From a virus (taxonomy: Duplodnaviria; Caudoviricetes), in IMG/VR virus record IMGVR_UViG_3300028886_000002, positions 1-64,000 of that record: a stretch of 64,000 bases of DNA. One strand, 5' to 3'. Within the stretch, counting starts at the first letter, position 1. The number at the start of each line of letters is the position of its first letter. The position numbers were made by a program, and so were the translations under genes. The notes below the pieces were generated by a model. That model had not been told where the DNA came from. It saw only the letters and a list, made by a program, of their open reading frames with translations, and did no database searches. Below are positions 385 to 55,182 of this stretch, piece by piece.

Positions 385-1128
385 ATGAAAAAAGACATTT
401 TATACATTAATTCTGTAGAAGACATAAGGTTAGTAGATATGTTACGTATATCAAAGAAAGAAGATCCTTACAATGGTTACGCATATGTTGACTTAGGATT
501 ACCTAGTGGTACATTATGGGCTACAATGAATGTCGGAGCAAATAGTGAAACTGATTATGGTCTGTATTTCGCTTGGGGTGAGACTCAGGGATATGCTGAT
601 GCAAGTAGTGGAAAGAAATTCTCATGGGATGATTATAAATGGGGTACAGATCAAAACCTAACTAAGTACAACAGCACTGATAACAAGACTTAGCTTGATT
701 TGGAGGATGATGCTGCCGCTGTAAATATGGGCGGTCAGTGGCATATGCCAACACAAAAGCAAATTCAGGAGTTATTGGATAATACTACTATTACACGGGT
801 TACAGACTACAATGGCAGTGGTATTAATGGTATATTGTTTACTTCAAAGACTGATATCAACAGAAAACTCTTTATTCCTAGTGCGGGTAACTTCGGTAAA
901 GGTTCAGTTTACAACGTTGGTGACGATGGCGGCGTTTGGTCAAGTTCACTTACCTTTAATGACATATATAGAGCTATGAGTCTAGAATTAGGTACTACAG
1001 AGAAGCCACATTTTGCAAATAAAGGAACATCCCGTGAAGTTGGACTTTCAGTTCGTGGTGTAATAACTCCTAATCATGATACTCCATATTATCCAGAACC
1101 AGGAGATCCTCATGAAAGTGGTCAATAA
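385..1128 (+). CDS. Bacteroidota surface/lectin-like protein (VDLGLPSGTLWA family, DUF1566/Fib_succ_major-like); one in-frame TAG at 691-693
   Basis: ORFs 385..693 and 700..1128 share a frame. Joined: YVDLGLPSGTLWATMNVGA..YGLYFAWGET..KT[Q]LDLEDDAA..GGQWHMPT..LFIPSAG..WSSS..R..GLSVRGV. Confidence 0.8.
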
Positions 1129-1145
1129 TATTAATTTATTATAGC

Positions 1146-1952
1146 ATGAAAATAATAAAGAAATTTGATAAAGGAGAAGAAGTAAAAAAGCTTCAAAAAC
1201 TTTTAGGAATAAATGATGATGGTATTTTTGGACCTATTACAGAAGAGTGTGTTAAACAGTTTCAAAGAAAAAATGGACTTGTTCCCGTTGATGGTATAGT
1301 TGGTCCAAAGACATGGGCTGCATTAGGTATAACAGATACTAATAGTAAATGTGTAGATCCAAATATCATTTATGTCCCACTAACCAGTTGTATAACTAAA
1401 AAACCTAATAGGACTATTAAGTATATAGCTATTCATTATACCGCAGGTGGTAGTTCAAAACCTGGGACAGCGAAAACTATGAAAAATACTTGGGAAAAGT
1501 ATAAGAAGGGTTCTGCTGATTTTGGTGTGGATGATAGAGATATGATTTAGTTTAACCCTGACATTAATAACTATTATTGTTGGGGAGTAGGCGATAAGAA
1601 AAATCCTTATAGTGGTGGAGGACAATTATATGGTATTATAACCAATAGTAATACTATATCTATTGAAATATGTTCTAGTCTTAAGAAGGATTATTCTGGT
1701 AAATATCCAAATCATGATGGGTGGTACTTTACAGATAAAGTATTAGAAAATGCAGTAAAATTGACAAAGATATTAATGAAGAAATTTAATATTCCTGCTG
1801 CTAGGGTAGTAAGACATTATGATATTAGTGGAAAAATCTGTCCTGGAATTGAAGGTTGGAATAATGCCACATTATATGATAATGAGGGCAAAGCCTTAAA
1901 AGTGAAGAATAATTCCAAAAAGTGGGAAGAATTTAAAAAGAAATTAATATAA
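1146..1952 (+). CDS. Endolysin: N-terminal peptidoglycan-binding domain plus N-acetylmuramoyl-L-alanine amidase (Amidase_2); one in-frame TAG at 1548-1550
   Basis: PG-binding motifs DGIFGPITEECVKQFQ and DGIVGPKTW. Amidase motifs IAIHYTA, ISIEIC and VVRHYDISGKICPG. ORFs 1146 and 1761 are in frame across the TAG (DMI[Q]FNPD). Confidence 0.9.
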
Positions 1953-1954
1953 TA

Positions 1955-1986: not shown

Positions 1987-2030
1987 CATTATATATTCCA
2001 AGATTTATATATAAACTTAAAAATGAACTA

Positions 2031-2894: not shown

Positions 2895-2917
2895 TAATAA
2901 TTATTTATATATTAAAT

Positions 2918-11036: not shown

Positions 11037-14000
11037 ATGACAACTATACCTATTATAAACTTAAAAAATCGTGCTAATATAATATCCCCAAAAGGATCTT
11101 TAGTATATGATTATAACCCACTGAGAGTCTTTAAAATAGATTCTCCTAATATGGAATATTCTGATTATACTTTAGATGGCTGGGAGAATAAATTTCAAAA
11201 AGGTACATATATTATACTTTCTAATACTGGAAAGTATGATACCTTAGTGTCTGATGGTAGCTCATTAAGTATCTTAGGAGAAGAAGTATCTATTCCTTAT
11301 TTAAAGAATAATTATTTATGGAAAGAAGAAGACGGATTAGCAGTATTTGAGAAAAAATCAAAAAAGAATGGTAAAGGTTTAATAGATAATCTTGATACAC
11401 CTTTATTAAATTTTGATATAACCCGCCCTTTAACTATTGATGCACAAGACTCTTATGATGGTACTGTTAATTTAATATATAATGATAATTATTCTATCCC
11501 TAAGTTAATAAATACTAGATTTGCTACTATTGGTGATAATAAATATCAAATAGTAGATAGGGAAGGAGAGGATGATACAAATTTATATCCTTAGAATTCT
11601 TTTGAGAGTTCTATTGCTTTACAAAAAATAACTAAGGGGATTGTTAATATTGAATTTAGAGGAGTAAATGGAAATGGTAATTTACCAGTAGGTAATTATG
11701 TATTTTACTTTAAATTATCTGATGAGGACTAGAATCCTACTGATTTTATAGGAGAATCGTCAGTAGTAACTTGTCACAATGGTAATTTATTAGATCCCTT
11801 TTCTATAGAAGGTGGAGTAGAAGACTAGAATAGTCATAAACAAGTACATTTTGTATTAGAAAATATTGATTCAGCCTACAATAGAGTACTTGTATATTAT
11901 ACTAGAACTACCTCGTCTTCTACAGGAGTATTGCAAGTTGAACATAAAATGCTTGGAGAATCTTACGATGTTTATAATGGGTCAGCGAATATTACTATAA
12001 CTGGATATGAACCTACTTATGCTGTAGATGAGTCTGAAATTAATACATCTTACGAAATAGTGGGTAGTGCAAAAGCTTAGGCTATCTGTAATAATAGATT
12101 ATTCTTGGGGAATATCAAAAAACCTGAAATTAATAACAAGGCTTTAAAAAATCTGGCTTTACATTTTTATCCTCATATAGTATGTCAATCTATAGGGCAT
12201 GTTGATAATGATTATAATATTTCTTCTGGTTATGAAGGTATTTATCGTGGAGAATATTATAATACCAAAAATATTTACCATTATACAGGATACTGGAATG
12301 ATGAAATATATAGATTTGGTATTGTATTCATTATGAAGGATGGTTCTCTATCTCAAGTATTTAACATTAGAGGAAGATGTAATGTTACTTCAACTGAAGA
12401 AGAAAGTGATTCAAACAAAGTAAAAGAATTGAAACTGTACTCAAATGATAAAAACAAAGGTTAGCCTAACGACCCTGAAGTACTTGATCACATTTATGAA
12501 ATACCATATGATTTAGACCATTATACTATTAATAATGAAGCATATCTTGAGCCAGTAAATAATACAACTTTTACTGAATTAGAAAATACAAAAGGTGTTT
12601 TTAATATTAATTCTAGAGAACCTCAACTAACTTCTACTGACACATATGCTTATGGTATAAAAATTAGCGTAGATAATTCTGAAGTTATAAAAATACTATA
12701 GACTTTTACTAAAGGATACTTTATAGTTCGATAGAAAAGATTAGCAACTACATTATGCTAGGCTATTACTATAGGAACAGATAGAATTAGTCATCTACCT
12801 TTATTGCCAGTACCATAGGGTTACTTAACTGAGGGTTTCCTTGATTCTAATAGAGTTCTAAATAATTCTTTTCAATCAAGAACTATTATAGGAACAAATG
12901 CTATTCAAGGTTCGGCAGCTATTTGTCCAGAATATGAATTAAGACAAAATTACTTTAATCCTTTATTTACTTCAACTAACTATTCTGTACAATTAGCTCT
13001 TGATTAGTATGAAAACCAAACCTTAGACAGTTCTAATAACTATTTTTATCCTATAAATACTTATGTATAGTCTAATAAAGACTTTTAGGGTAAAGTCTAT
13101 ATACAAGCAGTTCCAGATTCTACAACGGCTATAAAGAATAAGTCTTTAGTTTATTCTTCTAAAGCTGGAGAAGCAGAGGAAGCTAAAAGATTTAGTTATG
13201 TGTTTAATAGAAGAAAAACTGAAAAGAACACATCTATAGCTAGAGGAGTATGGGGCCCTTATTTAGGATTAGAATCAACGCGAATTGGAGCTATAGAAAA
13301 CTTAAGAAGAGTAAATATAAAAATGCCAGACTATTCAAGTTCTAACATGGAAGATCTATTTCATATTCGTTACTAGGATTCTAGTCCATTTTATGCTGTT
13401 TCAGATAGAAAATCTTTTGATGAGTATAAAATTGATCCCGAAGATCCTAAAAAACTAGATATAGTCTTTAGAGGAGATTGCTATATATGTAACTTTACAC
13501 ATAGAATGGTTAGAAATTTCCAAGACCCTTCATTTCCAGTAAATGATGATATTCTTGACGCTGAAACCTGGAAAACTCATTATAAATTAAATAAAGGTGG
13601 TAAAAGTACTAATGAAAAAGATTCTACTATTACCTTTAAAATAGGTAGTGATGGTACTGTAAGTTCTGTTCCTAATGAGGATGTAGATATAGCAGAAACT
13701 GCCAAAATCAATAGAGGTGATGTAAATGCTGTTAAAATAGGACATTGGGTTACATTCAAGATAATGTCTAATTTTAACCTATCAATGAGAAGTGTAGATG
13801 AAACCCATATTGATGAGGCTGCTCTCACACATAAGGGAAGGACATTTTATCCTCTATATCCTATGAGTACAGAAGGTACAAATAAGATTCCAGAAGCCTT
13901 TATTATGAATGAAGGCTATGGTAGAACTACATCTGACCAACATAGACTATTAAGTAAAGATTTACCAACTGAAAGAACTGATTTTAGTACTAGAATAATG

Positions 14001-16094
14001 TACTCAGAACTAGGAGTAAATAACGCAATCTCTAATAATCTTAGAATTTTTAAATCTGGAAACCATAGAGATTACTCTACAAATTATGGTCAATTAGTCA
14101 AACTTGTGCCTCAAAATAGTTATTTAGTTTGTATCTTTGAACACGGCATAGGATTAATAGAAATTAATGAACGAGCTGCTATAAATCAGGCTAGTACAGA
14201 ACAAGTTTACATTAAATCTCTGAGTGTATTACCCGAAAAAATGTCTATGATTCATTTAGACTTTGGTAGCCAGTGGCCCGAAAGTGTTATTTCGACTCCT
14301 ACAGGTATTTATGGTGTAGATACAGTAGCTAAAGTAATTTGGAGATTAGATGTTGGGGGAGGATTTGAAACTTTGTCTGATTTTAAAGTTTAGAATTTCT
14401 TAAATAATAATATAACGTTTTCTCTTCATGAAACTTCTCCGATTGTAGGTATTAGAAATGTAAAAACTCACTATAATGCCTTTAAGAAAGATGTAATATT
14501 TACATTTTATGATGATATAAATACTATAGAAGATAAAGCCTGGAGTTTATGTTATAACGAAGATACAAATGTTAAAACATTTACAACTTTCTATTCTTGG
14601 CTGCCTTCTTACTCTGCTAATATTGATAATGTATTTTTTACTTTTGATAGACAAGCATCAAAAGAATTAGCTATGCTATATGACTATTAGGGAAAAATAA
14701 AATTATCTAGTGATGATGTTGATTATTCATATTCTGATTTACATCTTTTTAATAAAGATGCTGCTAGTATAGAGAATAGTAATATATGTAAAGCAAAGAT
14801 TACATATACTGGAGCTTTAGATTATGAATTAGCTATAGACAATAAATATATTTCTGATGAAATATTTAAGTTAAAAAAAGAAGATGGATATTATACATTG
14901 ACTTTATATGACAAGGGCTTAAATTCTGAAGTGTACCATATTCCTATTATTATAAGCGAGTATCAGACAGACAATAATGGACAAAGAATGATATTGAGGA
15001 AGTTAAACACTACTTTAATGATATGTACAGAATAGTACCGTACTAAATTATAGAATTATATATGGAAGCATGGTTAGGCAGGGCTAATGTAGTTGGATAC
15101 AGAAATAAAACCAACTAATTGGTATGGTAAGCAACATCCATTTGAATTTGAATTTGTAGTAAATAAGGATATTTATAGTCATAAAGTATTCGAAAACTTA
15201 ATTATTTTATCAAATAAAACAAAACCAGAGTCTTTACATTTTGAAGTTGTTGGAGAAGTTTATAACTTTGCAAAGGATAAATTAAATATGTTCTACCGTC
15301 AAGAGGCTACTAAACAGTTATATTAGTACTACGGTTATGATATTGCATATAATAAAGAATATCTTAAGTTAAATCCTGAACATAGATGGGATAAATATAG
15401 TGAGTATTTTGATAAATCTATAATATTCCCATTAAGGGTTACTAGACAAGATTCTTTAAATGAAATTTATGATTATTATCAAAGAGCAACTTCTAATTCC
15501 TTAGATTATCAATCTTTATCTGGGGCAGAAATTACCTATGATAAATTATTAAATGATTTTAATGTAAATGTCCATATTCCTGTATATCCTTTAGACGGAT
15601 ATGAAGAAGTTAAAATAACTGCTGACCAATATGAATACTATAAAAGAAAAAATGTACAGGTAAGAAAAGAAGGTAATGATTATTATAAATTAGTACCTTA
15701 TGGTAGAAGATTAGGAAATGCTGAATATGAAAGTGATAGATGGTTAATTCAAATTCCCTCTATAAATTATGTTGAAAAAAATGAGGAGGAATGGACTAAC
15801 AATGTTCCACCTTTAAACGTTTACTATAATCCTTTACCAGAAGACGGTCCTATTAATGGTTATATCGATAAGCCTGAGCAAACCAATCCTTTCCCTGACA
15901 AGGATATATTCATAAATAATAATGGTATTTCTTTATATAAATATGATAATATAAATCAGATAAAATCTGATAATTGGGGAAATTATAAATAGACTAGATT
16001 AAGGGATAAATATATGAAGATAAAAGTTAGATATGATGGAGAAGACCTGGCTGTTATTGCAGCTATTATAACTCTATTTTAGAAAAGCACTTAA
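11037..16094 (+). CDS. Muzzle / tail-stabilisation protein (~1685 aa, P22 gp10-like role inferred)
   Basis: ORFs 11037, 12105, 13506 and 15093 are in frame. Motifs NRLFLGN, GYWNDEIYRFGIVF, FRGDCYI, FGSQWPESVI, FTTFYSWLP and C-terminal RLRDKYMKIKVRY. TAA at 16092-16094. Confidence 0.75.
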
Positions 16095-34700: not shown

Positions 34701-35639
34701 AATTCAGAAGCTGAAAAAGTATTAGTAATGCTTAATAGAGCTATTGAAAAATTTAAGTAGAAGTTAATTGATGAACTACATATACAAGAAAATATTGATC
34801 CTAATTTACTTACAATCCTGGAACAAACTATAAGCGATGTCGTAGATTCAAAAGCAGAACCTATTATACAGGATTTAAGAACAAATGGGGATAATTCTCA
34901 ATATGCAGTAAAAGAGAAAATGATGGAGGCTGCTAATGCATCAGTTAGAACTATACTTACTGATATTGTTACAGAAGTTAATAATAGGATATCTGATCTT
35001 AATATTTCTACTGTTCCTATAGTAACTTATAATGGAATGATAAGTACGCTTGAACAAGAATTACGTTCTAGAAAAAATTATAAAAAGACTGATTTCAATA
35101 GCCCATTAGCTGAAACATAGTTAGTTAAGGATGGTAAAGATTATTTCTTATATTATAAAGAAGATGGAATAGCTTATAGAGTTAAAATAACTATGTAGGA
35201 TGGCTATGTACGTGATATCAGAAGAAAAGTTATAAGTGCATCAGAATTTCCAGGGGCAGCTCCAGCCGTAGAGCCAGAACAAAAATCTGATTCTTTAGAA
35301 TTAATACCTAAAATAATAGAAAGCATTAATTCTGTTGAACCTCAAAGAGAGGGAGGAATACCTCAGTAGTTTGTAGATGCTTTTAATACGGCAAAACAGA
35401 GTCTAATTGAAGCTGTTACTGATTCTATTTCTTAGGATCCTGGAGTTGTAAATGCTGCTGTATCGAAGTGGCAACTTGCTATGAGCATAATAGAAAATTT
35501 AAAGAATATGTACTAGGTAACATCTAACTTAGATGCTGTTATAGCTGAACATATAAAAGAATTAAATTCGAAACAAACATCGGAAGACATTTGCGTAGAT
35601 GCGCAAAACTTAGTAATTTTGTTGAATAAAACAATTTAA
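25743..35639 (+). CDS. Giant virion protein (~3298 aa) with internal superfamily-1 helicase-like domain
   Basis: All + ORFs from 26013 to 34920 share the frame. Walker A GIPGAGKT (30378-30401), Walker B IIFIDES (~30696), ILTGDLQQ, KAQGSE and TTISRSK[Q]G. TAA at 35637-35639. Confidence 0.8.
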
Positions 35640-35652: not shown

Positions 35653-38600
35653 ATGAACGGACAATGTAGTTTAAATGATTCAAACATATATTCACTTTTA
35701 AATAAGTTATTAGTTCCTGGCAGAAATCTAGATAATACCTATAAAGAGATAGGTAGGACTCTAGTAGAGGGAGGGTATGACTTATCTGAGGATAACAGAG
35801 AACATTTGGCAGAAGCAATGCTAGCTTGGAGGAATGCTAATCTTCCAATAGCATTGTTTTCGCCTGGTTCAGAGAATCAAATATATCTGAGCGCATTAGC
35901 TGCTGATAGTAAAGAATTATAGTATGCTTTAACTTCTATTATTCATTGGGATGGTGATACTAAACCAGAAGATACTAAATAGATGGTTATAGTTGATTAG
36001 GACAACAGTGATAATGATACTGTTGATATTACCACTCGTATTAAGGAGAACCAATTGGATGATATTTACTAGCAAGCTGCAGAAGCTAAAACATTAATGT
36101 AGCAATCTTTTAAAAGAAATATTGTTAGTTCATTGCTAGTAAATTTTAAAATTGGTCAAATTCCAACAACTGCTGAACAAGTAAATAATAATATTGCTTC
36201 TTATAAAGAGGAATTAGCTAAAGCTATCGTTGATTATGCAAATACTTATGCAGAAAGAAATATTACTGCTCAGATGTATAATGAAGATGGTACCTTAAAT
36301 ATTAGTGGGTATAGAACAGTTGAAGAATTAGCAAAGCATCTTTTTGAAAATACTACAGATATTGAACTTATCGACGCTTTTAAAATGAGAAATGAATCTC
36401 CTAAATCTAGAGCATTTCTTGACGCTTTTAATGCTTGGATAATTCTAAATAACTTTGATATGTTATTGAAAGCAGAGTTAAAAGATTCTGTAAATATTAA
36501 GAAAAGTCTTTTAGATGCTCAAGTAGATAAAGATGTTATAAAATACTAGCTTGTAGATGAGTCTGAATTAGTAAAGACTTGGAGAAATTCAGAAGATGTA
36601 AATGCATTAAAAGAACTTGGTAATATAACAACATTACTTATCTCATCTACACCTATGTATGATTACAATAAAGGCAAGCCTTATTTGCAGCCTGGGAAAT
36701 ATGTAGATCCAAATTCATTTTTCTTTGCATTTGCTGATATATTAAGAATACCATCTATTAAGAGAATTTCTGAAAATAAACGTTATAATTCATTAGAAAT
36801 TATCCCTCAAATTATAGATGCTGTTTTATCTATTTCTTCTTTGGGCCCTAATACAAATCTAATACATAGTATAATGTATTCTGTACAATAGCATTTCTTT
36901 AGGACTTCTGGAAAGCAAGCTGACCAAGACTACTCTTTGGCAGAAATTATGCTAAAAGAACAAAATTCTGAAGGTTACTATGTAAATAAGAATTATTTAA
37001 ATTATGTTGCATCTGCTATAGATAAGACTGTACGAAACTTATATTTGACTTATAATTCAAATAGAGACACTGGTGTAATTGAAACTAGAGTTTCTACGGA
37101 TGTATCAGCATCTAATAGTGAATTTGACATTAGGAATTCTATCGAGAGTCCTAATAAGATGCTTCTTCCTTCTTAGAGAGAATAGTTAATAAATACATAT
37201 GTTCTTAACAATAAAGAATACTACGATGCTTTATCTGAAGAAGAGCAAGAGAAAATTGGGTATGATCCACAGTTAAGTTCATATCCAAGTTTGTGGTCTA
37301 TAACTACTGATATTACTGTGGGAGGAGCTCCTGCTAAATTAGTAATACGAGTATTTAATGACATTACTTCAGATGGTAGTTAGAATAATAAAGCAATCCA
37401 TTCTATAAATATAGTAGATGAAAACGAAAATGTATCTACTATATTTAATAGTAAAGATGGATTTAGCCCAGAAGTTCCAGAAGCAATATTACAAAATGTA
37501 GAATCTGTCATAATGGATATGGTAGATGATACATTAAAGCAGAACTTCAAGACCAATCCTGAATTCTTTAATGCTTATATGTAGAATCTTCCTAACAAGG
37601 AAACTGGACAATAGCAGTCACATTTAGAGGGATTATTATACTTAATTCCAATGGCTAACAGAGTATTAATTAAACATACTTTAGAAGCTAAGAATTTAGC
37701 AGAGAATACTTCATTGTTAGACAAAGTATATAGAATTGATCCTATTTATAAATTTTAGAATGGTAAGCAAAAGCCTTATTTATCCCTTTAGAAAAAACTA
37801 AAAGTATTAATGGATACAAAAGGTGATAAGACTGTTGTAAAATTCTTAGGAAATGCTAAAATGGTAATTACAGGAGAAATTGCAAAATCTACATCTAAAA
37901 ATATTGAAGGTAATACTGTTTCTAACAATGGTCTAACTAATCTTATGAGCACTGTTGCTTTAGTATTTGAAGATTCCAGGAAAAAACTATCTACTGAACA
38001 GGATGATAGTATGGAAGACCCATACTATCGTAATTCTTGTTTACGAAACTGTGTCTTTGTACTACAACCTGAATTTTTACATGGAGTAGTATAGAAGCAA
38101 GGTGCAAAAAGTAAAGACGGTTTATCTAGTAAGCTAGACAAGAAATTTAATGTGGCAGAGTCCTTAGAAAGTGCAATAAAATTTGATTTCTTGATTAATT
38201 ATGGGTTAGATCCAACTAATTCACAACAAGGTATAATCAGAATTCAGCCTACAGATTATTCTGATAAAACTACTGACTATCTTCTCGAATTAAATGGAAA
38301 TATTCCACTTTCAAATAATAAAAGTTTAGTAGGAATGTCCTGTATAGAAGTAGAAGAATTGCATAGAACTCAAATGGATAGTATGTATAGTACTATGCGT
38401 GATAACATAGGAAAAGACTATCATGACACATTATTTAATTTCGTATTAAGAAATGCCGAAATATTAGGATTAAACAGAGACTATTTAATACGTTTAGATC
38501 AGTAGGCTGATTATTCAAAATACTATGATTACTATACTCAAATAGTATTTAAAGCAATCAATAATAATATTGGTAACTTACAAATAGATGGTAAAACTTA

Positions 38601-41600
38601 TTCTAATCCAAAGCAATTATATAGAGACTTATCCAGAATAAATAATACCAAAGTAATTACTAATGTACATTTTGATGATACGGCTAAAGTCTTAACTACT
38701 AATAATATTATTGATTATTATTTCCGTGTATTCGGCAATAAAGATTTATATAATTATGTTCTTAAGAGAAACCAGTTACGTTTTATTAAAGATGTTGCCC
38801 AGTATGTTAACTTTAGATGGTCTACTCAAAAAGGTATTGATCCTATATTGGAAAATGCTGTAAAGAGGCTAATAAGTAATGGTACTATTGGTGATGAAGA
38901 AATGTTTATACATAATTGGGTAGATTATAGAACTGGTGACCTTATATTAGCCAAAATAAATACAGACGAAGAATCTATACCTTTAACTAAAACTGACTTA
39001 AAGAAATTAAAACTTTCTGATTTAATTTATGGTGATAATTTTGGATTTGAGATAAACCCAATTCTTAGAGCATTCTTTGCCATTGACACAATGGTATCGC
39101 AGCAATTTATTAGTTCTACTGTTGGAGGTAACTTTGTACATAAAAACAACTTTGGAAAAAATACTGATGCTAATCCGTTGTGGGAAAATGTAGGACGATT
39201 TGAAATAGGTAGTCCTGAATTTAATATTGCTTTAAATGAATACTTAGATACAGTGGAAGTAGAAGATGCAGGTAGATTACTTACTCAGTATAAACGTATG
39301 GTTATTTACCCTGCCACTATGCACCCATTGTATTAGATGGCATTGGAAGGGTCTCCTACATATTATAATATGGCAAGTATAGACGATGTTTAGGCCAATA
39401 CTTGGGATTATATTAGTGGAGACCATAGTAACGGTAAACAAAAAACTATAGATGCTCACGATGGTTCTGGTATGGTTGATCCTGGATTTGCTATTCTTGA
39501 AAATGGATCATTACAAGGTGCCCATGTAGGTATTGATAAAAAACCTATTGGACATAGTATGGATGATTCATATATGGTTGAGACAGAATTAAAGTATGCG
39601 TTGTTTGCAATTACTAATTGGAAAGTTAGAAATTCTAGTAATAGAGTCGGAGAACGCTATGGTATTAATTATGACCTTTTCCGTAGAAAAATGGGTAGTT
39701 CAGAATATGGGCAAGGATGGCCTAGTGATTTAGATATAGATATTACCACTAAATTTAATGGTGAAAAAATTAATCTAGATGACTTAGTTTCTACATATTT
39801 CTATGATCCAAAACTCAAGAGTTACTTCCAAATTGTAGGAATACAAAAGTTACCAAATGTTAAGAATGGTTACATATTTACATACTAGCATGTAGATGAA
39901 AATGCAAAGCCCATAGGAAAACCAATAGAAGCAGAGCAGCCTCTTATAATTGACAGTAATTACTCTTTATGGAAAGCTTTAGGAGGAGAATGGTCTTGTT
40001 CTCTCCAAGATGGTAGGTTAGTAGAAGATGAATCCTCTAACTATAATTGGGCTTATTTTGCAAACAATATAGGATTTATAAGAACAAAACAAAATCCTAT
40101 AGCTATGCATGAAATAGATTATACTGAAAATGATTTACTTGATGAAAATGATATTACTACTGATGAAAATGGTAAAAAATCTTTTCCAGTAGTTTTAACT
40201 CAAAAAGATATATATCAACCTCTTAAATATTCAGGAATACAATATGCAGTAAACGTATCAGGTATTAAGAATGGTCAAGTAAATACAAACCCAGTACGAT
40301 CTTATTATGATTAGACCCCTTTAAGAAGCTTTCGTATATTTACTAAGCATCTTGGGGTGCAAATGAATGCTGACCACCATGCAGATGATGCAGAACTTAC
40401 TGAGATGTCTCAGGTTATTTCTGCATTGGAAGCTAACGGTTGGGCACACGATCTAGTAAAATAGATTTATGAAGACCTGGGAAGTATAGTATTATAGACT
40501 CTTGAACAAGAAATTAAAGCTTTAAAAGTTTTCTTAAAAACAGGTGATAATACAGAAATATATAGAATTGTAGGTAAGGCCTTTATAAAATCTTTTGGTA
40601 AAGACGGAGGACAAGACACTCTTACTGCTAGTATGATGAATAATATCATCAAGGAATTAAATGGAGAAGACAATATAGAAAATATTGAATAGAAATTACC
40701 TTTTAGTGATACTTCTGTATTATCTTCAGTAGTTGGTAGTATTACTTCTAATATCAATAAAACAGCCATTAAAAGAAAGTACTCAGGTTTAGCCGCTGTT
40801 CTTGTACCTGCCTATGATATTATAAAAGTTTATAAGCAGAAACAAGAAGATGGATCAACTAAAGACGCTCTTAATGAGGATATTATTAAAAATGATACTG
40901 ACTTGTCTGCTCAAACAGAAGCAAGTGATATAATGTCAGCTAAAAACATAGAGTTAGGCCTATCTTATATAGTATATGAAAATGTGGCATTAGACCCTTA
41001 GCCATTAAAAAGAGCTATAATTGATGGCAAAGAATATTATGTAGGGCATAATTATGACGGAATGTTAGTTTTGTTTGATAAATATGGTAATCAACAAGAT
41101 ATTCCTATGCCTGATTTAATACAAGGGCAATATGTTACTGGATAGTTACCTGATTTAGTTGTTACATTGGATACAATTAGTGACTACAAGAAGTTTAAGC
41201 GTTCAGCATTATAGTTTAAAGAAGACTATGCAGTAGGTAGAAACCTCTAGCCATCTAAAACTAGCTTCTAGGTTAGAGAAGAAGAGGGTACTACTTATAG
41301 TATATTTGACACTGATGAAATTGAACAAAAAATAAAATTCAGAGAATTCTATGATGTATTTAAAAAGACTCCTGTAATAAATTACAAGAATTTCTTTAAT
41401 AATAATGATGCTTTATTTGATATAATCAACAGAAATCTAAATCCTAGAATAGTATCTATATACACTAAAATTAGAAATCTAACATCTAAAGATGTATTGA
41501 CTACTAATGATGATGTAATGATTTAGAAGTATATGGATATGTTGGAAGTCGAGTTTGCTAACCAAGTAGTAATGGCTTTCCAAAATTTGCATCAATAGCA

Positions 41601-44600
41601 CATAGTACATATGGGAGGAGAAACATTTAATGTTGTTCCTGAAACAATTAAAGTTGAACCTGCTGAATTGGTTGTATCTAAAATATATGCAACTAAGTTT
41701 GGAATAAAGAAAGGTGATAACTTAAACAATATTGATCTTTAGTATTTTATAAACTAGCAAAGAGAAAATTTTGTACCCAAAACTGAATTATATGATATAA
41801 TGCTCCGTAGGGATAATGGAAGACATACTTATGTTTTACTTAGTAAGCATAAAGACTAGTTATTAAATAAGCAATTTGTAAAGGTAAATCCCCCTACTCG
41901 TGTGGACTCTGTTACTGGTGATGTGATAAGATTAAATGAGTTAGAAGAGGACATGATGCCTTTCAATAACTGCGAGCTATATGTTAAGGATGGAATAGAA
42001 GTAATCGTAACAGACGATCCTGCTGATTTAGTAGATGATGCTTTTGAATACTCTTCATATGATATAAATCCATCTAGTAAATTTGGATTAGAAGACTTAA
42101 AAGTATTTGATACTATTCCTCTTAAGAGGATTTCATTAGAGCAAAGAGAAAATTATATTAATAACTTAGCTTAGAAAAAATGGTCTTCTTTCTAGCAATC
42201 ATTAGAATTTATAGCTGCTCGTATTCCTGCTCAAGCTTTACAATCCTTCATGCCTATGAAAGTAGTAGGATTTACTGATTCTGAGGAAAACAAAGCTTAT
42301 GTTTCTCATTTCTAGACTTATCTTTAGGGTTCTGACTATGATATTGATAAAGTATATCTAATGGGTAATGAGTTTACAGAGTCTGGAATTTATATTGGCT
42401 GGAGTCCTTACTTCAACTTAAATAGTTTACAGAAGTTAAAAATTTCCTAGGAAATTCCTATGCCTAATGGTATAGAATATTCATTGGTTTCTGCTTAGGG
42501 TACAGGTGAAAATACTGATATAACTGAAGACATAATTAATCTTAAGTTAACGGAACTTTCTTATGGGTAGGACAGTATTTAGTATTTAACTGCAATCAAA
42601 AACCTTCTTATTAAAGCTTAGCAGACTAAAAATTCAGAATTGGCTGTAAATTATACTTCTTTGGCAGATACTTTTATACAAAATGGAATTGCCCACGATC
42701 CTACAGCATCTTTATAGTTTGTATAGGATGAAGCTGACAGAATACTTGATATGATTAATAAACATACTTCTTATTTTAAATCAATTAAGAATAAGGATAT
42801 GCGTTTAAAGATGACCAAGAATTCTGTTACATCCAAGATGTATAAAACTGCTAATCTTCCAGAAAATACTTATGCTGCTTACAGCCCTATCGAGATGGGT
42901 GAAACTAGAGAAGCTGCAACTAAGTCTTAGATGGGTGAAGCCGAAAAAGACTATACTACTTTTAATCCAGTATCTAAGTTTATGATGCATTATCAAAATA
43001 TGATGGGTAAAGATGGTATTGGTATATCAGCAGTAGGAGAGAAAGTATTATTCTGTCTATAGTTCTATTTTAACGAAGCTGCAAGATTAAACTCAAATTT
43101 TGATAATCTTGATTCTGATGAATTTAAATTCTAGAGAAATGCATTTTTCCATAAGACATTGGATATAGTAGCAGCTGGTACAGATAGAATGCCTATAATT
43201 CGTAATCTTATTGCAAACGTTAATTTAAAAAATAATAATCATATATGGGCTCAAATTATTAATTCTAACGTAGCAGAATTAGAGAGTCTAATGCAGACAA
43301 GTTAGGATTCAGAAAGAATTAAATTCTTACAAGACATGATACTACTCCAATTAAACTATATGAAAGATAGTTCTCTTGTGAATAGTTCACTTCTTTCTGC
43401 AGCAACTGATAATGCTAAAGAGCTTATTCTTGCAAAAATCAATGCTAATCCTGATATGATGAAAGTCTATACATACGGTATAATATTAGGAATTGATTTT
43501 ACAGATATAGCAAATTTAATGATCTCTCCAACTGTAAATGCTGTTAATCAGTTGAGTGATATTAACATATTTGAGAAAGATAGCTTAACTTCTGCTATTA
43601 CAGCATCTTTAAATTCTCTTAAGAAAGGTATAAATCCTGGTGAGTATCTTAATACTACTGACATAGAGATAATTGAAGACTTACTTTTTAAAGTACCTAA
43701 TGGGGATGTTAGAAGACTAGATTTATAGGAACTTATACGTAAGTCAAAAACCTCTAGTGTAGAAGGGCATACCACGTTCAAGCAAGATTTAGATGGAGTA
43801 AATAAAGGTGAAGTAAGTTGGGAAAGATTTGCAGCTGATTGGACAGTTAAGATTAATAATATTATTGCATTAATAGATGGGTTAGCGGGTTCCACTCCTT
43901 CTCCAAGCATTCAATAGCTTTACAGGTATTTATTCAAGATGCAAGAATGGCTGGATATTGTAAAGGATATTGATCAAGAAACTTTGAATACATTTAAAGA
44001 TATGCTAGATTCAGCAGAAGAATTTGTTACCTTTGGTGCTATCTTAGGCATTAATCAAGGTATTAGAACTGATGTTGATGGTAAATTAGCATATTTAAAT
44101 AGAATAGAAAATGTGTTTAAAAATAGATTCGATAAAGGAGCTTCTGTAGATGTAAATGATATTTTAGCTTCTAAACCTTACTATGTAAGATTCTATGGTG
44201 GGGAACAAGAAGCTAGAAATTACATAGAAGCTACTGTTAAGAAGGCAGACTCTTTAGGAATATTCAACGACTTTAATGTACTACAATTCCTATTAGATGA
44301 ATAGTACAGAGAGGTTGCTATTGATGCTTACGACTTAGTAAAGGGTACTATTAATATACTAGATATAATATCAAGAGTACCCCATTTCCAGGCAATGATA
44401 GACTCTAGCGGTGTTGATTTTTATTTGTTCAGCAGTATTAGTTCTGTATTTAATTTGATGTATAATATTTCACATGAATTATTATAGAGAGGAGAATTAA
44501 GCTCATTATCTACTAGACAAAGAACTGACTTTACTAGAGACCTTCAGAACTTTATACAATCTCAAATTGCCTTAAAGTATTTTAAGGATAGAAATGTTAA

Positions 44601-45585
44601 AGTTCCAATCGGCGAAGGAAATCAGGTAATTAATAAAGACGGTGAACTAATAACTATTGAACAAGAAGAGGCTTTAGATTTAGGAACAGTAGAAGGGCAA
44701 GCAGCATTTAAACTTTGGATGGAACAAACTGTAGTTCCAAATTTAAAAATGGGAGTTGTTGAAGATGGTAATGATGAATATATCCAACGCTCATTGTTAA
44801 CTAATAAATTTATACAAGCCCTTACTTTGAATTCTACTACTAGAACAACTACTGGAGATGAAAAAGGTGTTATATCTCTACCTATTAATATGTCAGTATC
44901 AACAAGTGAGTATAATGAAAATATGTTCGTATCATACCTTACTGATTTTAATAAATTAAAAGGTGTAACATATAATGGTATTCCAGTACAAACTTTATTC
45001 TTCTGGTATAACTTGATTGTAAATAGAAATGTCCAAAGCCGAGATTCTTTAACCAAAATATTTAAATCTGCTATTAGAGATAATAGAGGGGATAATGACA
45101 TTAATGACTATTTTAAGTATGTTGGTGACATGGATAAAAGATAGTTGTTTTCTTCTGAAGACTTTAATATGCAAGACTTATTATTATCTTGTGCTCCAAA
45201 AGTTACTAGAGCGTGGTTAGTAAATGAGAAGTATGAATCTAACTAGTATCCTACATTTGTAAAAAGCTGGGATTCTGACACTGGTACATATAAAATATAT
45301 AAATTAGATCCTACTACTTTTGCAAAACGCGGAGGTGATGAAATGGACGATCTAGCATTAGCACAAATGGAAGATGCAGGAGAATTAGATTATGAAACTA
45401 ATGAGTTTACTCCTGTTGGATATAGAGAATATACTGTAAATGCAAATATGAGTAAAGCAGTAATGGCTAATTTATATCCATTCTTACCCTATAATTCCAG
45501 AGAGTTTAAAACAAAAGACGTAATGGATAAATTAAGTAGATTATTTAAACAAGGTAAAATTTTTATTTATAACGATTGTGGCTAA
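35653..45585 (+). CDS. Virion-packaged two-barrel DNA-dependent RNA polymerase, catalytic subunit (~3310 aa)
   Basis: In-frame AARIPAQALQSFMPMKVVGF...YL[Q]GSDYDIDK (DxDxD at 42334-42348), plus DAHDG, GKDGIGISA and SAATDNAK motifs typical of crAss vRNAP. Confidence 0.9.
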
Positions 45586-48472
45586 TAATTGTATTCCAAA
45601 AATAATAATGGGTGACTAGGAATTTGTTGGTTCCTAGTTACCCGCCCATTCGTCTCTTACACAAATATTGTAGAGTGTATTGGCTAATGGTAATAATGCT
45701 TCAGAGTTAAATTAGAGATTGTCTGATATTTCTAGTCTTGATTAGGTGTAGATAACTTCATTTGATCAAGTTGCTTAGATAATACCAGGTAATGCTACAT
45801 TTATGGATATATCTAAAAAGATACATTCTGAGGGGCGTATATATTCTCCAGTAAATAAATCTATAGAAGAAGCTATAAGTATTATCACTAAATATGGTAA
45901 TTATCCAAAAATATTATGGCTTAATGGCGATATAAAATTAAATGGAGCTTCTATTCCTAATGTTATTATTACTCCAAATGGAGAGGATATTATAGTTCTT
46001 AAATCGAATGATCCTTTTGAGATAAATATAGCATTATAGGAATACATTTATAAAACACTATTATCTACAAGAGCAAGAAGTTTCTTGAGTCTTATAGAGA
46101 CTGCTATGGGTAAAAAAATTACTCAAAAAAATAAAGACTAGATTGATTTAGTATTTAGAAGAAATCCTGCTATAGCTGCTATAGGAACTAAAGAAGAGTA
46201 CAGACAATATTTATTATCTATATTTCCAGAATCTGTAGAAACTTCAATCTATTGGCACGGCTCTAATTCTGATTTCTCGGAAGGATTTTAGAGTGCACAA
46301 AAAACTGAAGGTAGTGGTGCTCCTGAAGTACAGGATAGAAATGATATGTACTTTAATAAGTAGGCGTATGCTTCTATTCAATATGTAAATGGACAAAATA
46401 GAACTGCTCCAGCAGATGTTAATGGTTTTGCTCATTGGAATAAATTATATTGGGAACTTAAAGAGATCCTTTCTAATGGTTTATCTGGAGATTCTTGGAG
46501 AAATCAAGTAATTGATACAAGCACTATTAGAAAAGAAATTCCTAATAAAAGAGGTGAATTTGATCCAAAAAGAAAAAAAGGAAAGACTCTAGACTAGAGA
46601 AAAAGAGCTTATGGGTATGGTGAAGGTGATGAAGAAACAGTTGCTTTCTTTAGAGAAGTTTTTGGTATTGAAATAAATGACCCAAATAAAAAAATAACCT
46701 TTAATGAATGGGTTGCTAAAAACAAGAAAATCTTTAAGGATATGGAAGGAGAAGCTCCTGGTCTTTATCCTGTTATTCTTAATATCAAGAAACCTATTAG
46801 AGAAGAGGGCCAAGATACCTATTATGAGGGGCATCGCAGACTATTTACTAAAGCAGCTAAAAAAGGCAATGATGCTATTATAGGTACTCGTACTAAGAAT
46901 GAATTTGGGTCTGATGTAGTAGTAATGCTCAATCTTGAAGACAATCCAGAAGAAAGAGTACATTTTTTAGGAACTACAGCAGATTTAGAAGCGTTTGCAG
47001 CTTGGAAACAACAAAATCAACTTTCAACTGATAATATAATTGAGAAAATACTTCGAGACCCATTTATAAATGAATTTCTCGATTCTGAAGGTTCTGCTAT
47101 TACTGAAGGTTTTGATACCCTTAGAGATGAATTACAAAGTGTAGTACATTAGGCTATCAATGATGCAATTAGTACAGAACATTATTTTAGATTAGAGAAA
47201 GTAATTAGTGGAGGACAAACTGGAGTAGATACTGCAGGTGTTACTATAGCAAGAGAATTAGGATTTTCCACTGGAGGAACCGTGCCTGTAAATGGTTTAA
47301 GAGAAAGAGTAAATGGACAATCTAGTAATATATCTAAAGAGGATATGGTTAAGTTCGGATTTGAAGAAGTACAAGACATTACTGCTTCTAACCCTTACAC
47401 TGACAGAACAAGAGCTAATGTTCAAAACTCTGATGGTACTGTTTATATATTGGCTAGTAAGTATCTCGCTAGTGGAGAAGAATCCGCTGGTTATAAAGCT
47501 ACTTCAAGAGCTGCTATGGAACTCGGGAAACCTTTTGCAGTTGTCTATAGTGCATAGGACTTAAGAGAATTTGTTATAAATAATAACATTAGAGTATTGA
47601 ACATTGCAGGTTCTAGAGGCAGTTCCTATTCTCCTGGAGATGAAGAAAGAATAAATAGTATTATTAAAGATGGTCTTACTGCACAGCCTTGGATAACAAA
47701 AAATAGAGTTGAATCTTCTTTAGTTACTTCAAGATATCCAAGTGCAAACTACAACACTGATAATATGAGTGTTTCTGATGTACAAGACGCTCTCAATAAT
47801 CGTACTGCTAATATGGTTTCTTATTATGGAAAAAATAAAGCCAATCCATCTATTCCAGGCAATACTTTTGAAGCAATTCTAACTCATTAGAGAACCGCGA
47901 CTACTAGGTATGATAATTTATACTTTTGGACAAAGAAAGTAAAAGTCGGAGACATTGTAGCTTTTAAGAAGAGTAAAGAGGCAAATTCTAGTGTAGTTTT
48001 TGTAAGAATAAAAAGTATTAATCCTATAAATGAGGATGCTAATCCTTCAGAATGGTCAAGCAAAGAAGGTTGGTCATAGGCTTATTTTAAGGATACAGTC
48101 ATACCAAAAATTAGAGAAGCAAAAAAAGAGGGCAGGTAGCCAGTGTAGATAGAATATGAATATGTAGGAGCTATTATTAATGATGACTTAAAGAATGTTT
48201 AGGGAACAAGTGAAACTACCTTTACAATATAGACTCCTATAGGACCTCTTGAATTTAGAAATTAGAAGGATTTAGCAAATAAATTAATAACTATTAGAAA
48301 GCAAATAGTTGGAACACAGAATTAGGAAGCCGAAGAAAAACTATAGAATGATATGAATATGTATGCTCAAGCTATAGTTACAGGCATTCTTCCTAGCGGA
48401 AGGGATATAAATAATGATCCCGTCGAGATGTAGAATTTTATAAATACTGTTATCAATGACGGAAACTGCTAA
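45578..48472 (+). CDS. Polyvalent virion protein (~964 aa): ADP-ribosyltransferase-like + SLOG/YpsA (MoCo-carrier-like) + ASCH-like domains
   Basis: GTG start overlaps the RNAP stop (alternative ATG at 45608). ORFs 45803, 46742, 47282 and 47597 are in frame. Motifs: YWHGS..MYF..A..Y..YPVILNIKKP..GNDAII; KVISGGQTGVD..RTRANVQNSDGT..LNIAGSR; TFEAILTH[Q]RTATTR..KVGDIVAF..EGW. TAA at 48470-48472. Confidence 0.75.
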
Positions 48473-50421: not shown

Positions 50422-53400
50422 ATGAGTACATGTGTATATAAACTTGGAGGAAGAGTATTTGGTTCAGAGTTGGATTTAGATAATTTCTTATATAATTATC
50501 TCGGATCTTTTGATGCAGACAGCATACCTGATCTTGTATTTAGTACACGATCTCCTAAAGCTAATGTGCTTTCTAAAAAATTGGATGATAAAGCTGAAGC
50601 TTTAAAAGCCAATGTAGTTAAAGCTGCAAAACTAAGGGCTAGAAGAGATGAATTTGTTAGTGAAGCAGAAAGTGCATTAATAGCAAATTACTATGGTGCT
50701 AATATGGTATTATCTACTGTAGAAATCGCCCCAAATACAAGAATAACACCAGAGTTCATTCGCTCTAAATTAAAAGCTAACTTGTTTAATTAGTGGACTG
50801 GTTAGCCTTCAGCTAAATCAACAGGTATTAGTAAAAACATTGCTGATATTTTAGCCGCAGCAGGCTATACAGAGAATGGCAGGCAATTAAAAGCTGGAGA
50901 TATTATTACAGAATAGACATATGCTGGCAATTCCACCAATATAGAAGATATTTTCCCTAAATGCAATGATATATTTGAAAATTATGTATGGCCTTATTGG
51001 GCAGGTTTAGGAAAAGTAGGTACTGCTATGCACCGTGTAGCAGAAATGTTTTGGTTGGGAGAAAGCACTATTTCCATATTAAATGATTCTGTTGTTATAA
51101 CTGGTGATGACAGTTTTACTGGCGATTTATCTAGTGTTTCTCCAGTACTTTCTAATGATACTATACATGAATTTCTTACATATCTAAATAGTTTAAAAAC
51201 TACTTTGCAAGCTCGACATGGAAAAAATTGTAAATTTAGACCTGAGTATCCAGTAGTTGCTAAAAGCTCTCTTCCAGTAAAAGGCAATCATAAGGCTCAT
51301 ATTATAGGTATCATTGACTTAGTAGTAGAAGACGAATAGGGAATACCTCATATTTATGACTATAAAACGTCCGATAAAGATATGGATGAATGGGGTGCAA
51401 TTAAAAGAAGATCTTATATGGCTCAGTTAGGTTTATATAGACGTATTCTTGAATCTTATGGTATAAATATAGAAGGTTCTACTCTAGGAATTTTACCTAT
51501 AAATTTAGCAAATTACACCATAACAAATGAGGGGTCACCTAGAGTAAATTCAATAGAATGTCCTAAAGATGTAAGAGGTCTTCCTTACATTGAAGATGTT
51601 TCTAGAGAACCAGCCTTATCACCTTTAGGAGAATTAACTGCAAAAATTAATAAGTTAGTATATGCTGAAAATGAACTTGAAGCTTTACCAACTAACTTTA
51701 TTAGAGATATTGAAACACATTTCAAAGAACTCTTCCCAAGTTATACCTTTTAGAAAGACTATGATGATGCTGTAAAAGAAGGTATAGAAGCTGAGATAAA
51801 AGAAAACTTGAATAATGGTAAGTACATGTTCCCAAAAATTCCTGGTGAAAAAGAACGTATGGAATATGATAAAGAGGAAATATCTTAGCATATGGAAGAA
51901 TTTTATAAAAAGTATGTTACTTAGAATGATATAGCTCAAAAGCGTAACATATTTTATATAAAACAAGCTATTAGAGAGTAGGATCCCGCTAGACTTCCAG
52001 CAGTATCTTCTGTTAACTATGGAGACAAAGGCGAATGGTTTATTCCAATGTTTTCTAGATATTGTAACGGCTCGTGGGAACCTGTAAACAATGACGCTCT
52101 TGAGAGTTTAAACATATTAGCTTTAAGAAATAAAATCTCTGGACAAGTTAACATCTTTGTTCTAAGCGGATATGACTTAAGCCGTAAAGTAAAAATGAAA
52201 GAGGGTAATACAGTCCTAGGGTAGCATGTTAATGATATTACACCACAACATGAAGGCGTTATTCCATTAGAAGCTGATTTAGGAAACATTGAATTAATGA
52301 AAGCAATGGTAGCTATTAATTTAGCATCTAGATCAGTTCTTCGTAAAGGGGATAAACTAGGCGAAGTTATGGCAATAAATATTTGGAATCAGTAGGGTAG
52401 AACTACCTCTAATAAGCAATTAATGGATAATTTCAATGCTCTATGTGATTATTCACAAACAACTATGCCTAATAATTTTGCCAATGGTAAAATAGAAGTA
52501 GCGTCTGCAACTCAAAAAGTTGCTACTACTATGCTTGAATTAGGTTCTTTGGAAAAAGTGGGAGTTTTAAACCGTATATACTCTAAATATGAAAAAAGCT
52601 TAGTGTCTTTGGACATTGAATATGATACATTAAATAGACTTCGTAAGGAATTAGAGGATGCATATCCAGATTTAGCAAAAGGAGAAGTAGATATTAATAC
52701 ATCCCAAGGGGCTATGTATTCTACTATTATGACTGCTATTTCTGAAATGAATAATGCTTATTATACACAAGAATTAAGAGAAAGTTCCTTTATATCTCTT
52801 AATGTCAATACTCCTGAAATGATGGAATCTTCTAATTTAAGAAGATTAAGAGCTTTAACTAACAATGCATTCTAGAGATTACGTGATAGAATGAATAATG
52901 AAGCTGCCGAGTGGAGAATCCATTATGACAAATTAATAAAAGCCAAAGGTTACAGTAGAGGAGAAAAGTGGATCACTGATAATGATTCACGTCTTTATGA
53001 GAATATGATTATTCATAATAAAGAATAGGGTATTCTTAAATTTAAAAATCCTTGGGATCAGACTACAGACTTGACTAAAGAAGAAAGAGAATTCTTAAAA
53101 TGGTATCTTGATAAACAAGACAAACTAAGGTTTGAAGAGGATAGCACAGAAGAAAGTCGTCAATTAAGAAGGGCAGACTCTAATAGTCAATACTTTGATG
53201 TTCCTTTAATGGAATCTAAGGGACAAGAAAAAATCTTAAATGGCAGAACTAAAGGTTTAGTGGCATGGTTTAAGCGTACAATGCAATGGTGGAGACACCC
53301 AATTCAAAATGCTAAACGATTAGAAGCGAAGGTTTTAACAAATGAGAAAGCCGACGAAGCAAAGAAGACTGCACAAGCTTTTAGAATTATGGATGTTTTT

Positions 53401-55182
53401 GAAGAAAGTGAAAATGAAGTAACTCGAACAAAACTTTTAAAAGAGCACGATCTTAGCTATTTTACTACAAGCGTTGAAAAAATATTCTATGCTTATTCTT
53501 TCTCTAAAATTAGAAAGAGTGTATTAGATTCTTATATGCCTGTATTAAAAGGTATGTATGTAATGCTAAAAACAAATGGTACATTAAACAATATTGGGAT
53601 AGAATAGATGTAGAAATATCTATTAAATTATGTTGAAGCTAAGATAATGAATCGCTCTTTGGTATCTGATGAATACAAAGGTCTAGCACATGCTATGAGT
53701 AAACTTAGAAATATAACAAGTGAGGTTACATTAGGTGTTTCTCCTAAGGCATTCTTATTCTAGCTTATTGAAGGCGTATGGAAAAATAATTCTCGTTCTA
53801 TTGTTAAACCTATGGGACTTAACCAATTTGGACAAAAAGAATATAAAGATGCTTTAATATGGCTTCTTGGAGATGCTAAAAATCACTTTAAAGTAGTATC
53901 AATGGGTGAGCTTATAAATGAACAATATGGTATAAATGACTAGGATATTAATGTACTACAAGACAGATTACGTCAAGGGCAAGATGCTTTAACATTTTAG
54001 GGTAAATTAATGTGGATGGTTAGTGCTCCAGATTATATGAATCGTATGGCTATATTTGTTGCATAGATGAAAGCTGACGGTTGCTTTGATGCTCATACCA
54101 TGAATGATGACGGATTTACAATGTCCTATGATTGTTCTAAAGATACACGCTTTAATAAACTTAAATTTAATAAAAAGTCTAGAGAAGATGTAAATACTAA
54201 CAATCCAGAATATCTTAAATAGCTAGCTCTTTATAAAAGAATGGTAGATGAGTTTAATGCTTAGGGGTATAAGATTATAGATCCTAATACTGGACTAGAA
54301 AGAAAAATGACTTATAATGATAAATTACCTAGGGCTTATACCAATAGAGAGGCTAGAAGTATAAAATCATTTGCAGATTCTTTGTATGGCTATTATAATC
54401 ATGAGGATCAATATCTATTAAAGAGTTATTTATTAGGTGCTTTATTTACTTAGTTTAGAACTTACTGGTCTTCTCTTAAGAACAGATGGTGGCTACGTGG
54501 AGGTATTTACAGTCAAGGACATTGGGAACATATGAAGAACTCAAAAGGAGAGTTAATGTATAAAAAAATAATTAACGAAGGTCAAGAGAATGAAAGAGTA
54601 ATTCTTGTTCCTGAAAGTCAATTGAACGGTGAAAATCTCGAACCATATATGGATTGGAAAGGTTCCTATTAGGAAGGCTATGGTTAGACAGTTTTAAGTC
54701 TCTTTAAAGATATGTTTAGTCCAAATGAAGATGATTTGTCTATGTCTGAAAGAGCCAGACAATGGTGGAAAGGGCAAGAAGGTATTGATGATACTGTTGC
54801 CTATACAAGAAGAGCTAATATAAAATTAATGATTCACGATTTATCAGTATTCTGTTTAATATAGTTAATATTTGGTACAATCATTATGCAACTATTTAAA
54901 GAGCAAAAGAAGAATGATAAAACTAGAAATCTAACTGCAATGGAAAAAGCACTAAGATCTGCTGAAAGAGTAGGACTTTATGCTATGATTCAATCAGGAT
55001 CCGACCTTGGAATTGGTGATGTGTTTTCACCAATGACTGATTGGACTCCTCCTAGCTTTGCAGTAGCTAAAGAAGCTTGGAAAGATATGGGAGAAGTAAT
55101 GACTGGTGATTAGAATTTCTTCAAAGCAGTAGTTGATAATGTAGGATTCTTACGACAGACTAAAACTTTATGGTCACTTTGA
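50422..55182 (+). CDS. Large virion protein (~1586 aa) with PD-(D/E)xK (RecB/Cas4-like) nuclease domain
   Basis: ORFs 50422 to 54886 are in frame. GTAMHRVAE..E..IIGIIDLVVEDE[Q]GIPHIYDYKTS..YMAQLGLY. TGA at 55180-55182. Confidence 0.8.

Follow-up and report, generated by a model that had tools for sequence, protein, structure and literature searches.

Yutin et al. (2021) described 243 crAss-like phages in which TAG is read as Gln or TGA as Trp, with the reassignment found mostly in late genes (PMC7886860). Branches of the Zeta group change codes over short distances and encode suppressor transfer RNAs (tRNAs) (PMC7886860), and Zeta phages with suppressor tRNAs and TAA-backed TAG stops have also been reported (PMC12386605). 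A model in which recoding acts as a temporal switch was proposed by Borges et al. (bioRxiv 10.1101/2021.08.26.457843), and Peters et al. (2022) found Gln at TAG positions in peptides from two crAss-like phages; early proteins yielded no such peptides (PMC9523058). Here we report on a 64,000-nt stretch of phage DNA (hereafter the window; positions 1-64000 of IMG/VR record IMGVR_UViG_3300028886_000002), whose + strand genes between 385 and 55182 are interrupted by in-frame TAG. The analysis indicates that UAG is very probably decoded as Gln (genetic code 15) in the virion, tail, cargo/transcription and lysis genes of this phage, by way of a late suppressor tRNA that would act as a lock and without a phage release factor. 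An earlier reading of the window's sequence (the original prediction) had linked such late use of code 15 to crAss-like phages, and the three studies PMC7886860, PMC9523058 and bioRxiv 10.1101/2021.08.26.457843 bear out that attribution.

The window comprises the first 64 kb of a 160,728-bp, single-contig virus record with a GC content of 32%. Approximately 128 bases at its start reappear at its end, and IMG/VR rates the record as 100% complete, with direct terminal repeats. TerL and the portal protein matched crAss-type PHROGs (phrog_6681, E = 1e-80, and phrog_6547, E = 4e-52, respectively), and a crAss001_48-related protein (PF21825, E = 6e-17) is encoded near the suppressor tRNA gene. A tblastn search with TerL matched classified Crassvirales (28-30% identity, 84-87% of the query covered) and, at 46-64% identity, two human-gut contigs without annotation. 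The record is therefore a complete 160.7-kb crAss-like phage; judging from genome size, mixed codes and mobile insertions, it probably belongs to the zeta group.

Decoding of TAG in the late block

Under code 11, the + strand from 385 to 55182 breaks into 39 open reading frames (ORFs) of at least 100 amino acids (median 138, longest 295) that cover 33% of the segment. With TAG read as sense, the same segment resolves into 23 abutting genes covering 99% of it, including six large proteins of 3,310, 3,298, 1,685, 1,586, 1,539 and 1,184 amino acids. Reading TGA or TAA as sense yielded no such gain (33 and 38% coverage, respectively), and the restoration of ORFs is therefore specific to TAG. These figures agree with the claim that the + strand fragments are joined only by TAG, and in the proposed comparison of coding density by code and strand the − strand ORFs cover 94% of 55244-64000 without any TAG. 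In-frame TAG occurs 282 times among the 18,143 codons of the 23 genes (1.55%) and makes up 35% of their CAA, CAG and TAG codons; 21 of the genes terminate in TAA and 2 in TGA. In the genome, the recoded + strand block extends from ~123.6 kb across the terminus to 55.2 kb.

The placement of TAG resembled that of the Gln codons. A CAA or CAG neighbor was present for 9.2% of TAGs and for 5.4% of other codons (Fisher p = 0.008); with CAA/CAG codons the share was 8.4%. The reported closeness of TAG to Gln codons is true but modest. Along the recoded genes TAG was uniformly placed (Kolmogorov-Smirnov p = 0.37), with a distribution like that of CAA/CAG. A model in which TAGs form gates at the 5′ ends of genes was not supported by the same test, the first-30-codon segments containing 11 TAGs versus 10.7 expected. 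TAG density varies by gene, and five smaller genes, including the endolysin gene, carry a single TAG each.

Assignment of the amino acid was restricted to DNA-level comparisons; database translations were excluded because they may themselves be code-15 calls, which would render the tally circular. A close relative is represented by IMG/VR 3300032030 contigs _000027 (G001) and _000164 (G002), which are syntenic with this phage, ~88% identical at the nucleotide level and independently assembled. In these contigs, 170 of the 267 aligned TAGs of the window stay TAG (64%). Among the 97 altered sites, CAA or CAG accounts for 68 (70%), Glu codons for 9, AAG for 4 and Tyr codons for 2; in the reverse comparison, 60 of 85 changed TAGs of the relative are CAA or CAG in this genome. 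The commonest replacement was TAG to CAA (42 cases), which requires two substitutions, and the one-step neighbors TAT/TAC, TGG, TTG and TCG were almost absent. Such behavior is that of synonymous codons.

More distant comparisons agreed. TerL (genome 134550-136667), which contains 9 TAGs, was compared with 80 IMG/VR loci, of which 20 are TAG-recoded, 2-4 TGA-recoded and 58 standard. Across the 58 relatives without any in-frame stop, Gln occurred opposite the nine TAGs in 285 of 522 cases. With two TGA-recoded relatives added, sites 188 and 403 were Gln in 60 of 60 sequences and sites 570 and 576 in 54-55 of 60; at the variable sites, Lys, Glu and Arg were seen. Two complete relatives, G006 (182.5 kb) and G007 (186.3 kb), have no in-frame stop in ~9,700 aligned codons each. 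In alignments of the window proteins to these two, for which each TAG had been replaced by X, Gln appeared opposite 24.1% (G006) and 26.4% (G007) of TAGs against a background of 3.3-3.5% (binomial p ~1e-19 to 1e-22). Opposite the phage's own CAA/CAG codons, Gln reached 28.9 and 32.7%, and Glu, Lys and Asp came next, as they did opposite TAG. Non-recoded homologs thus show the enrichment of Gln that the original prediction called for, and the refuting condition set there, TAG aligning mainly to a non-Gln residue or to gaps, did not overturn the claim.

Since three independent codon-level comparisons agree (the close relative, TerL, and G006 and G007), the identification of TAG with Gln is supported, and at the level of sequence comparison UAG is shown to be a sense codon equivalent to CAA/CAG in the virion, cargo and lysis genes. 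The features of the window are as follows.

385-55182, + strand: TAG-recoded block of 23 abutting genes with 282 in-frame TAGs and TAA or TGA ends
1146-1952, + strand: endolysin (peptidoglycan-binding domain and amidase; phrog_1493, E = 7e-35; PDB endolysin/amidase matches) with a single TAG at 1548-1550
11037-16094, + strand: crassvirus muzzle (tail) protein of 1,685 amino acids with 22 TAGs (PF25731 crAss_MUZ, 98 bits against a cut-off of 27)
23944-23946, + strand: TAG of the PKH*SGG motif, Gln in both standard-code relatives
25743-35639, + strand: giant 3,298-amino-acid protein with an SF1-helicase/AAA_30 P-loop domain and 53 TAGs
35653-45585, + strand: giant 3,310-amino-acid protein with a GSDxDIDK (DxDxD) motif, a putative virion RNA polymerase, with 54 TAGs
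42325-42327, + strand: TAG directly 5′ of the DxDxD motif, Gln (CAA/CAG) in both standard-code relatives
45578-48472, + strand: 964-amino-acid protein with a cpYpsA SLOG domain and 24 TAGs (PF12694, E = 4.5e-21)
50422-55182, + strand: 1,586-amino-acid protein with a PD-(D/E)XK nuclease domain and 25 TAGs, the final recoded gene
55244-64000, − strand: TAG-free standard-code block encoding Hsp20, an AAA ATPase, a metallophosphoesterase, ThyX, an OmpA-domain protein, small ORFs and PolA

Three motifs had been singled out as places where Gln fits, and all three are present. For the first two (TAG at 42325-42327 and 23944-23946), the relatives read WLQGSD(Y/L)DIDK and KLQ(G/Q)GG, in line with the claim; at the third, in the endolysin (1548-1550), Gln is weakly supported by a low-confidence Q-Q alignment to PDB 7RUM. 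In the giant DxDxD protein, which has ~990 homologs, the GSDxDIDK motif is invariant, and the column of the preceding TAG (Q2225) was invariant Gln in a 14-sequence alignment. Neither giant protein matched the PDB in phmmer searches, nor did the 14-sequence profile of the DxDxD protein; as a result, the RNA polymerase label rests on the motif and the literature. The motif is as described for crAss-like virion RNA polymerases, and the null results fit the extreme divergence reported for them (PMC7886860). The 3,298-amino-acid protein has an ortholog that is 84-89% identical in G001/G002. A PHROG search with 20 + strand proteins of the window returned the endolysin and one marginal match of unknown function (E = 6e-4), and so most of the virion genes are too divergent for this search.

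Several other recoded genes were noted. No gene of the window is denser in TAG than that for the circularly permuted YpsA SLOG protein (964 amino acids; cargo/transcription block), in which TAG accounts for 51% of Gln-family codons. A homing-endonuclease-like ORF (genome 147122-148228, + strand; phrog_314, E = 1e-16) lies within the structural block and is itself recoded, with 5 TAGs. The + strand block opens, just upstream of the suppressor tRNA gene, with a gene for 662 amino acids (genome 123625-125571, + strand) that contains 10 TAGs and has no family match. This gene has no blastn match of at least 400 nt in the syntenic contig G001, where ~2.9 kb separate the flanking matches, and its slot looks hypervariable.

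The suppressor tRNA and the genes that lack TAG

The window contains no tRNA gene. Outside it are nine tRNA-type genes, namely seven tRNAs and a transfer-messenger RNA (tmRNA) on the − strand and one tRNA(CUA) on the + strand. The latter (genome 126017-126091) was called by ARAGORN and scored 57 bits against the Rfam tRNA model; its cloverleaf is regular, U1 pairs with G72, position 73 is A, and the gene encodes the CCA end. The suppressor tRNA that the original prediction expected outside the window is thus present. Its proposed partner, inhibition of release factor 1 (RF1), found no counterpart: there is no recognizable inhibitor, and searches for the RF-1 and PCRF domains (PF00472 and PF03462) gave no match across the whole genome, with controls positive in 10 of 14 genomes. 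The TAG-free genes flanking the tRNA(CUA) gene encode no aminoacyl-tRNA synthetase, release factor or other translation-related domain, and a sigma-70 promoter scan around it performed no better than on shuffled sequence.

A tRNA(CUA) gene with two differences in the D-loop is also present in G001, and homologs with 72-80% identity occur in two further TAG-recoded phages, G003 and G004 (TerL 45 and 53% identical, respectively), the latter having two copies in tandem. In all four genomes the gene shares a strand with TerL, which it precedes by 8.5-12.6 kb (8.5 kb in this phage). Set against the other tRNAs of these genomes, the suppressors as a family are nearest to tRNA-Gln(UUG), with a mean identity of 0.63 across the full length and 0.74 in the first 27 nt; other isotypes reached at most 0.60, and U1 and A73 are common to the suppressors and tRNA-Gln. 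The similarity lends modest support to a possible origin of the suppressor from a Gln tRNA. The standard-code relative G006 likewise has a tRNA(CUA) gene (19612-19684), which belongs to a different sequence family.

Two other observations concern RNA genes. In G007, ARAGORN called a tRNA with a four-base anticodon (ttag) at 154930-155024. The tmRNA of this phage (genome 114250-114584, − strand; Rfam RF00023, 80 bits) has a likely tag ending in SMGYRAAA followed by a TGA stop; the tag printed by ARAGORN looks like a mis-call. The 88% relative also has a tmRNA, whose tag ends in YSYRAAA before a TAA stop; tmRNA goes unmentioned in the Zeta crAss paper (PMC12386605).

The opposite strand of the window is organized differently. 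It carries 12 complete ORFs (55244-62374) followed by PolA (62387 onward, to genome 64432; PF00476), which together occupy 94% of 55244-64000 and stop at TAA (11), TGA (2) and never at TAG. As originally stated, these 12 genes and polA are free of in-frame TAG and all end in TAA or TGA; ~43 TAGs would be expected at the rate of the late module. The avoidance extends over the − strand block as a whole (55.2-122.9 kb), where no TAG was found in 11,737 codons aligned to the close relative. GC skew tracks the direction of transcription, its sign flipping at ~55-56 kb.

TAG is also scarce as a terminator. Stops in the − strand block comprise 81 TAA and 36 TGA. Nine ORFs seem to end in TAG, but seven of these either overlap a tRNA gene or are pieces of recoded genes, which leaves no more than 2 TAG among 119 stops. 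In standard-code relatives the count is 43 of 344 (p = 2e-4), TAG ending 10-15% of genes, and TAG stops have thus been purged here. Among the very few − strand genes that do end in TAG is 94123-94524, which has a TAA 8 codons on.

The − strand module encodes PolA, ThyX, ribonucleotide reductase (RNR), an AAA ATPase, Hsp20 and a phosphoesterase, that is, replication and nucleotide metabolism, and the + strand module encodes TerL, the portal, the crAss muzzle protein, the endolysin and the giant DxDxD and helicase proteins. This split of gene content fits an early/late division. Judged from their codons, the − strand replication and nucleotide-metabolism genes are shown to be such that they would read alike with or without suppression. 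The RNR large-subunit gene (genome 66459-69411, − strand) was considered as a recoded exception and rejected, given that its two in-frame TAGs lie upstream of the likely start, at the junction of an insertion. The ~1-kb insertion (68414-69411, with an ORF at 68439-69350) is absent from G002 and is probably a mobile intron, intein or homing element.

Timing and competing explanations

In the scheme that we favor, transcription of the late block would yield the phage tRNA(CUA), which would be charged with Gln by a host enzyme. As it accumulates, the tRNA would outcompete host RF1, and full-length late proteins would be produced only then. The need for the suppressor would in this way serve as a translational lock that delays expression of the late and lysis genes, and a phage release factor would have no part in it.

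Several observations weigh against this scheme. Over its whole length, the phage's own copy of tRNA(CUA) is nearest to Arg and Glu tRNAs, and the Gln isotype rests on modest similarity. Two recoded ORFs precede the suppressor gene within the late-gene block, whereas the published 'code-change module' model would place it among standard-code early genes; if the suppressor is co-transcribed with the late mRNAs, the extra temporal control that it affords would be limited. The TAGs, uniform and without 5′ bias, have the look of normal synonymous codons, not of gates set at chosen points. We infer the temporal switch itself from gene content and published work. Moreover, the association of recoding with strand is incomplete. 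Four − strand ORFs need read-through of TAG (83884-85215, 85231-86004, 88828-89844 and 128595-129413, with 5, 2, 6 and 6 TAGs, respectively), and the last two, which keep 4 of 6 TAGs in the relative, show tape-measure/endolysin-like or minor-tail/endolysin-like similarity. Conversely, seven + strand genes that follow the tRNA lack TAG in 963 codons, where 15 would be expected (P = 3e-7). The proposed split between opposite strands therefore holds in the window and is not strict genome-wide; taken together, the recoded − strand genes and the TAG-free + strand genes indicate that recoding follows gene class, not strand. The recoded − strand ORFs form islands inside or beside standard-code genes. 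The TAG-free + strand genes, at genome 126116-127396 and 130700-132521, include those for the crAss001_48-like protein, a PD-(D/E)XK nuclease and a Cpn10-like protein, and the seven may constitute a 'middle' class.

The most serious alternative accepts TAG as Gln and denies that timing is its chief purpose. In its neutral version, a Gln tRNA mutated to CUA and TAG stops were purged, after which the codon was captured in an AT-rich genome; alternatively, the suppressor may chiefly impair protein synthesis of the host or a competitor through read-through of host TAG stops. Both ideas have been discussed for these phages (PMC7886860, PMC12386605). The uniform, CAA/CAG-like placement of TAG, its free exchange with CAA/CAG between close relatives and the low GC content (32%) all suit such an account, as does the fact that standard-code relatives such as G006 already have a tRNA(CUA) without recoding. 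Drift, however, would not limit TAG to virion and lysis genes while sparing 11,737 replication codons and the 963-codon + strand sub-block, and the recoded − strand genes are themselves of lysis or virion type. This confinement by gene class points to selection by expression class. We regard the alternative as possible but distinctly less likely than a role in timing, and the two may coexist.

A more elaborate form of the timing scheme starts from the position of the suppressor gene at the head of the late block in four lineages (TerL identity down to 45%) and from the TAG-free run of 963 codons that comes straight after it in this genome. The code switch might be coupled to transcription and staged, with the TAG-free 'middle' set expressed first and the TAG-rich genes later, and the phage tmRNA might clear ribosomes stalled at unsuppressed UAG. 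If so, the onset of late-strand transcription would supply the tRNA and the TAG-free 'middle' set before the TAG-rich genes. We put this forward as speculation that is rather unlikely to hold.

The explanations that question the decoding itself are effectively excluded. That TAG is a sense codon for Glu, Lys, Tyr, Trp, Leu, Ser or pyrrolysine might be suggested by the default label 'Pyl' that ARAGORN gave the tRNA, and by Glu and Lys being the next most frequent residues opposite TAG. Yet Gln is enriched 7-fold at these positions and the residues there follow the CAA/CAG profile as a whole, which likewise has Glu and Lys as runners-up; four TAG sites of TerL are 90-100% Gln; and among changes in the close relative the one-step neighbors (TAT/TAC, TGG, TTG and TCG) are nearly missing, with two-step CAA at the top. 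This explanation is accordingly very improbable. The notion that TAG is not translated through, the genes being pseudogenes, assembly or sequencing artifacts, or sources of fragment proteins, has only their appearance under code 11 in its favor and carries a negligible chance of being correct, given 23 gap-free genes at 99% density, 64% of TAGs kept in the same open frames of an independently assembled relative, full-length homologs in hundreds of genomes, and TAGs in essential genes (TerL, portal and muzzle protein).

Comparison with described crAss-like phages

Late amber-to-Gln recoding, with a proposed suppressor tRNA lock, is thus the reading that we retain for this phage; the recoding is correct here, already described for crAss-like phages, and opens no new question. 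Its practical consequence is for annotation. A standard-code annotation loses two thirds of the late block, including the muzzle protein, TerL, the portal and the giant cargo/RNA polymerase proteins, and gene calling needs a dual code, 15 for the late genes and 11 elsewhere. The genome adds one more complete case in large crAss-like phages, and its recoded and standard-code relatives should be useful for studying code evolution over short range.

The suppressor-encoding Zeta phages whose amber suppressors are 'silent' (Lera, clade 8; PMC12386605) offer one point of comparison. As in that group, the relatives of this phage are large (174-187 kb, compared with 160.7 kb here) and encode tRNA(CUA), TAG stops are purged or backed by TAA (94123-94524 in this genome), and a standard-code member with tRNA(CUA) exists (G006). 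The difference is that this phage clearly employs its suppressor, the window alone containing 282 sense TAGs, and that its tRNA(CUA) family differs from that of G006.

The phages of Borges et al. and Peters et al. are similar in that the standard code suffices for early genes, recoding affects structural and lysis genes, tRNA(CUA) tracks recoding, TAG stops are rare and GC is low. Relative to the Borges model, three differences were found. This genome lacks the 'code-change module' of RF2 or an aminoacyl-tRNA synthetase known from the Lak, Agate and Jade phages; its suppressor is not part of a standard-code operon but follows two recoded ORFs on the strand of the late genes; and its lysis genes are not preferentially rich in TAG, the endolysin having only one.

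A close match is the Zeta group as described in PMC7886860, for which genomes of 145-192 kb were reported, a range that includes the 160.7 kb of this phage. In common with that group, in-frame TAGs occur in TerL, the portal and the large DxDxD protein, recoding does not reach beyond late genes, the phage has its own suppressor tRNA, the code switches among close relatives, the replication block contains PolA, RNR and Thy1, and mobile insertions are present. In these features, nothing essential distinguishes this phage from the Zeta group.

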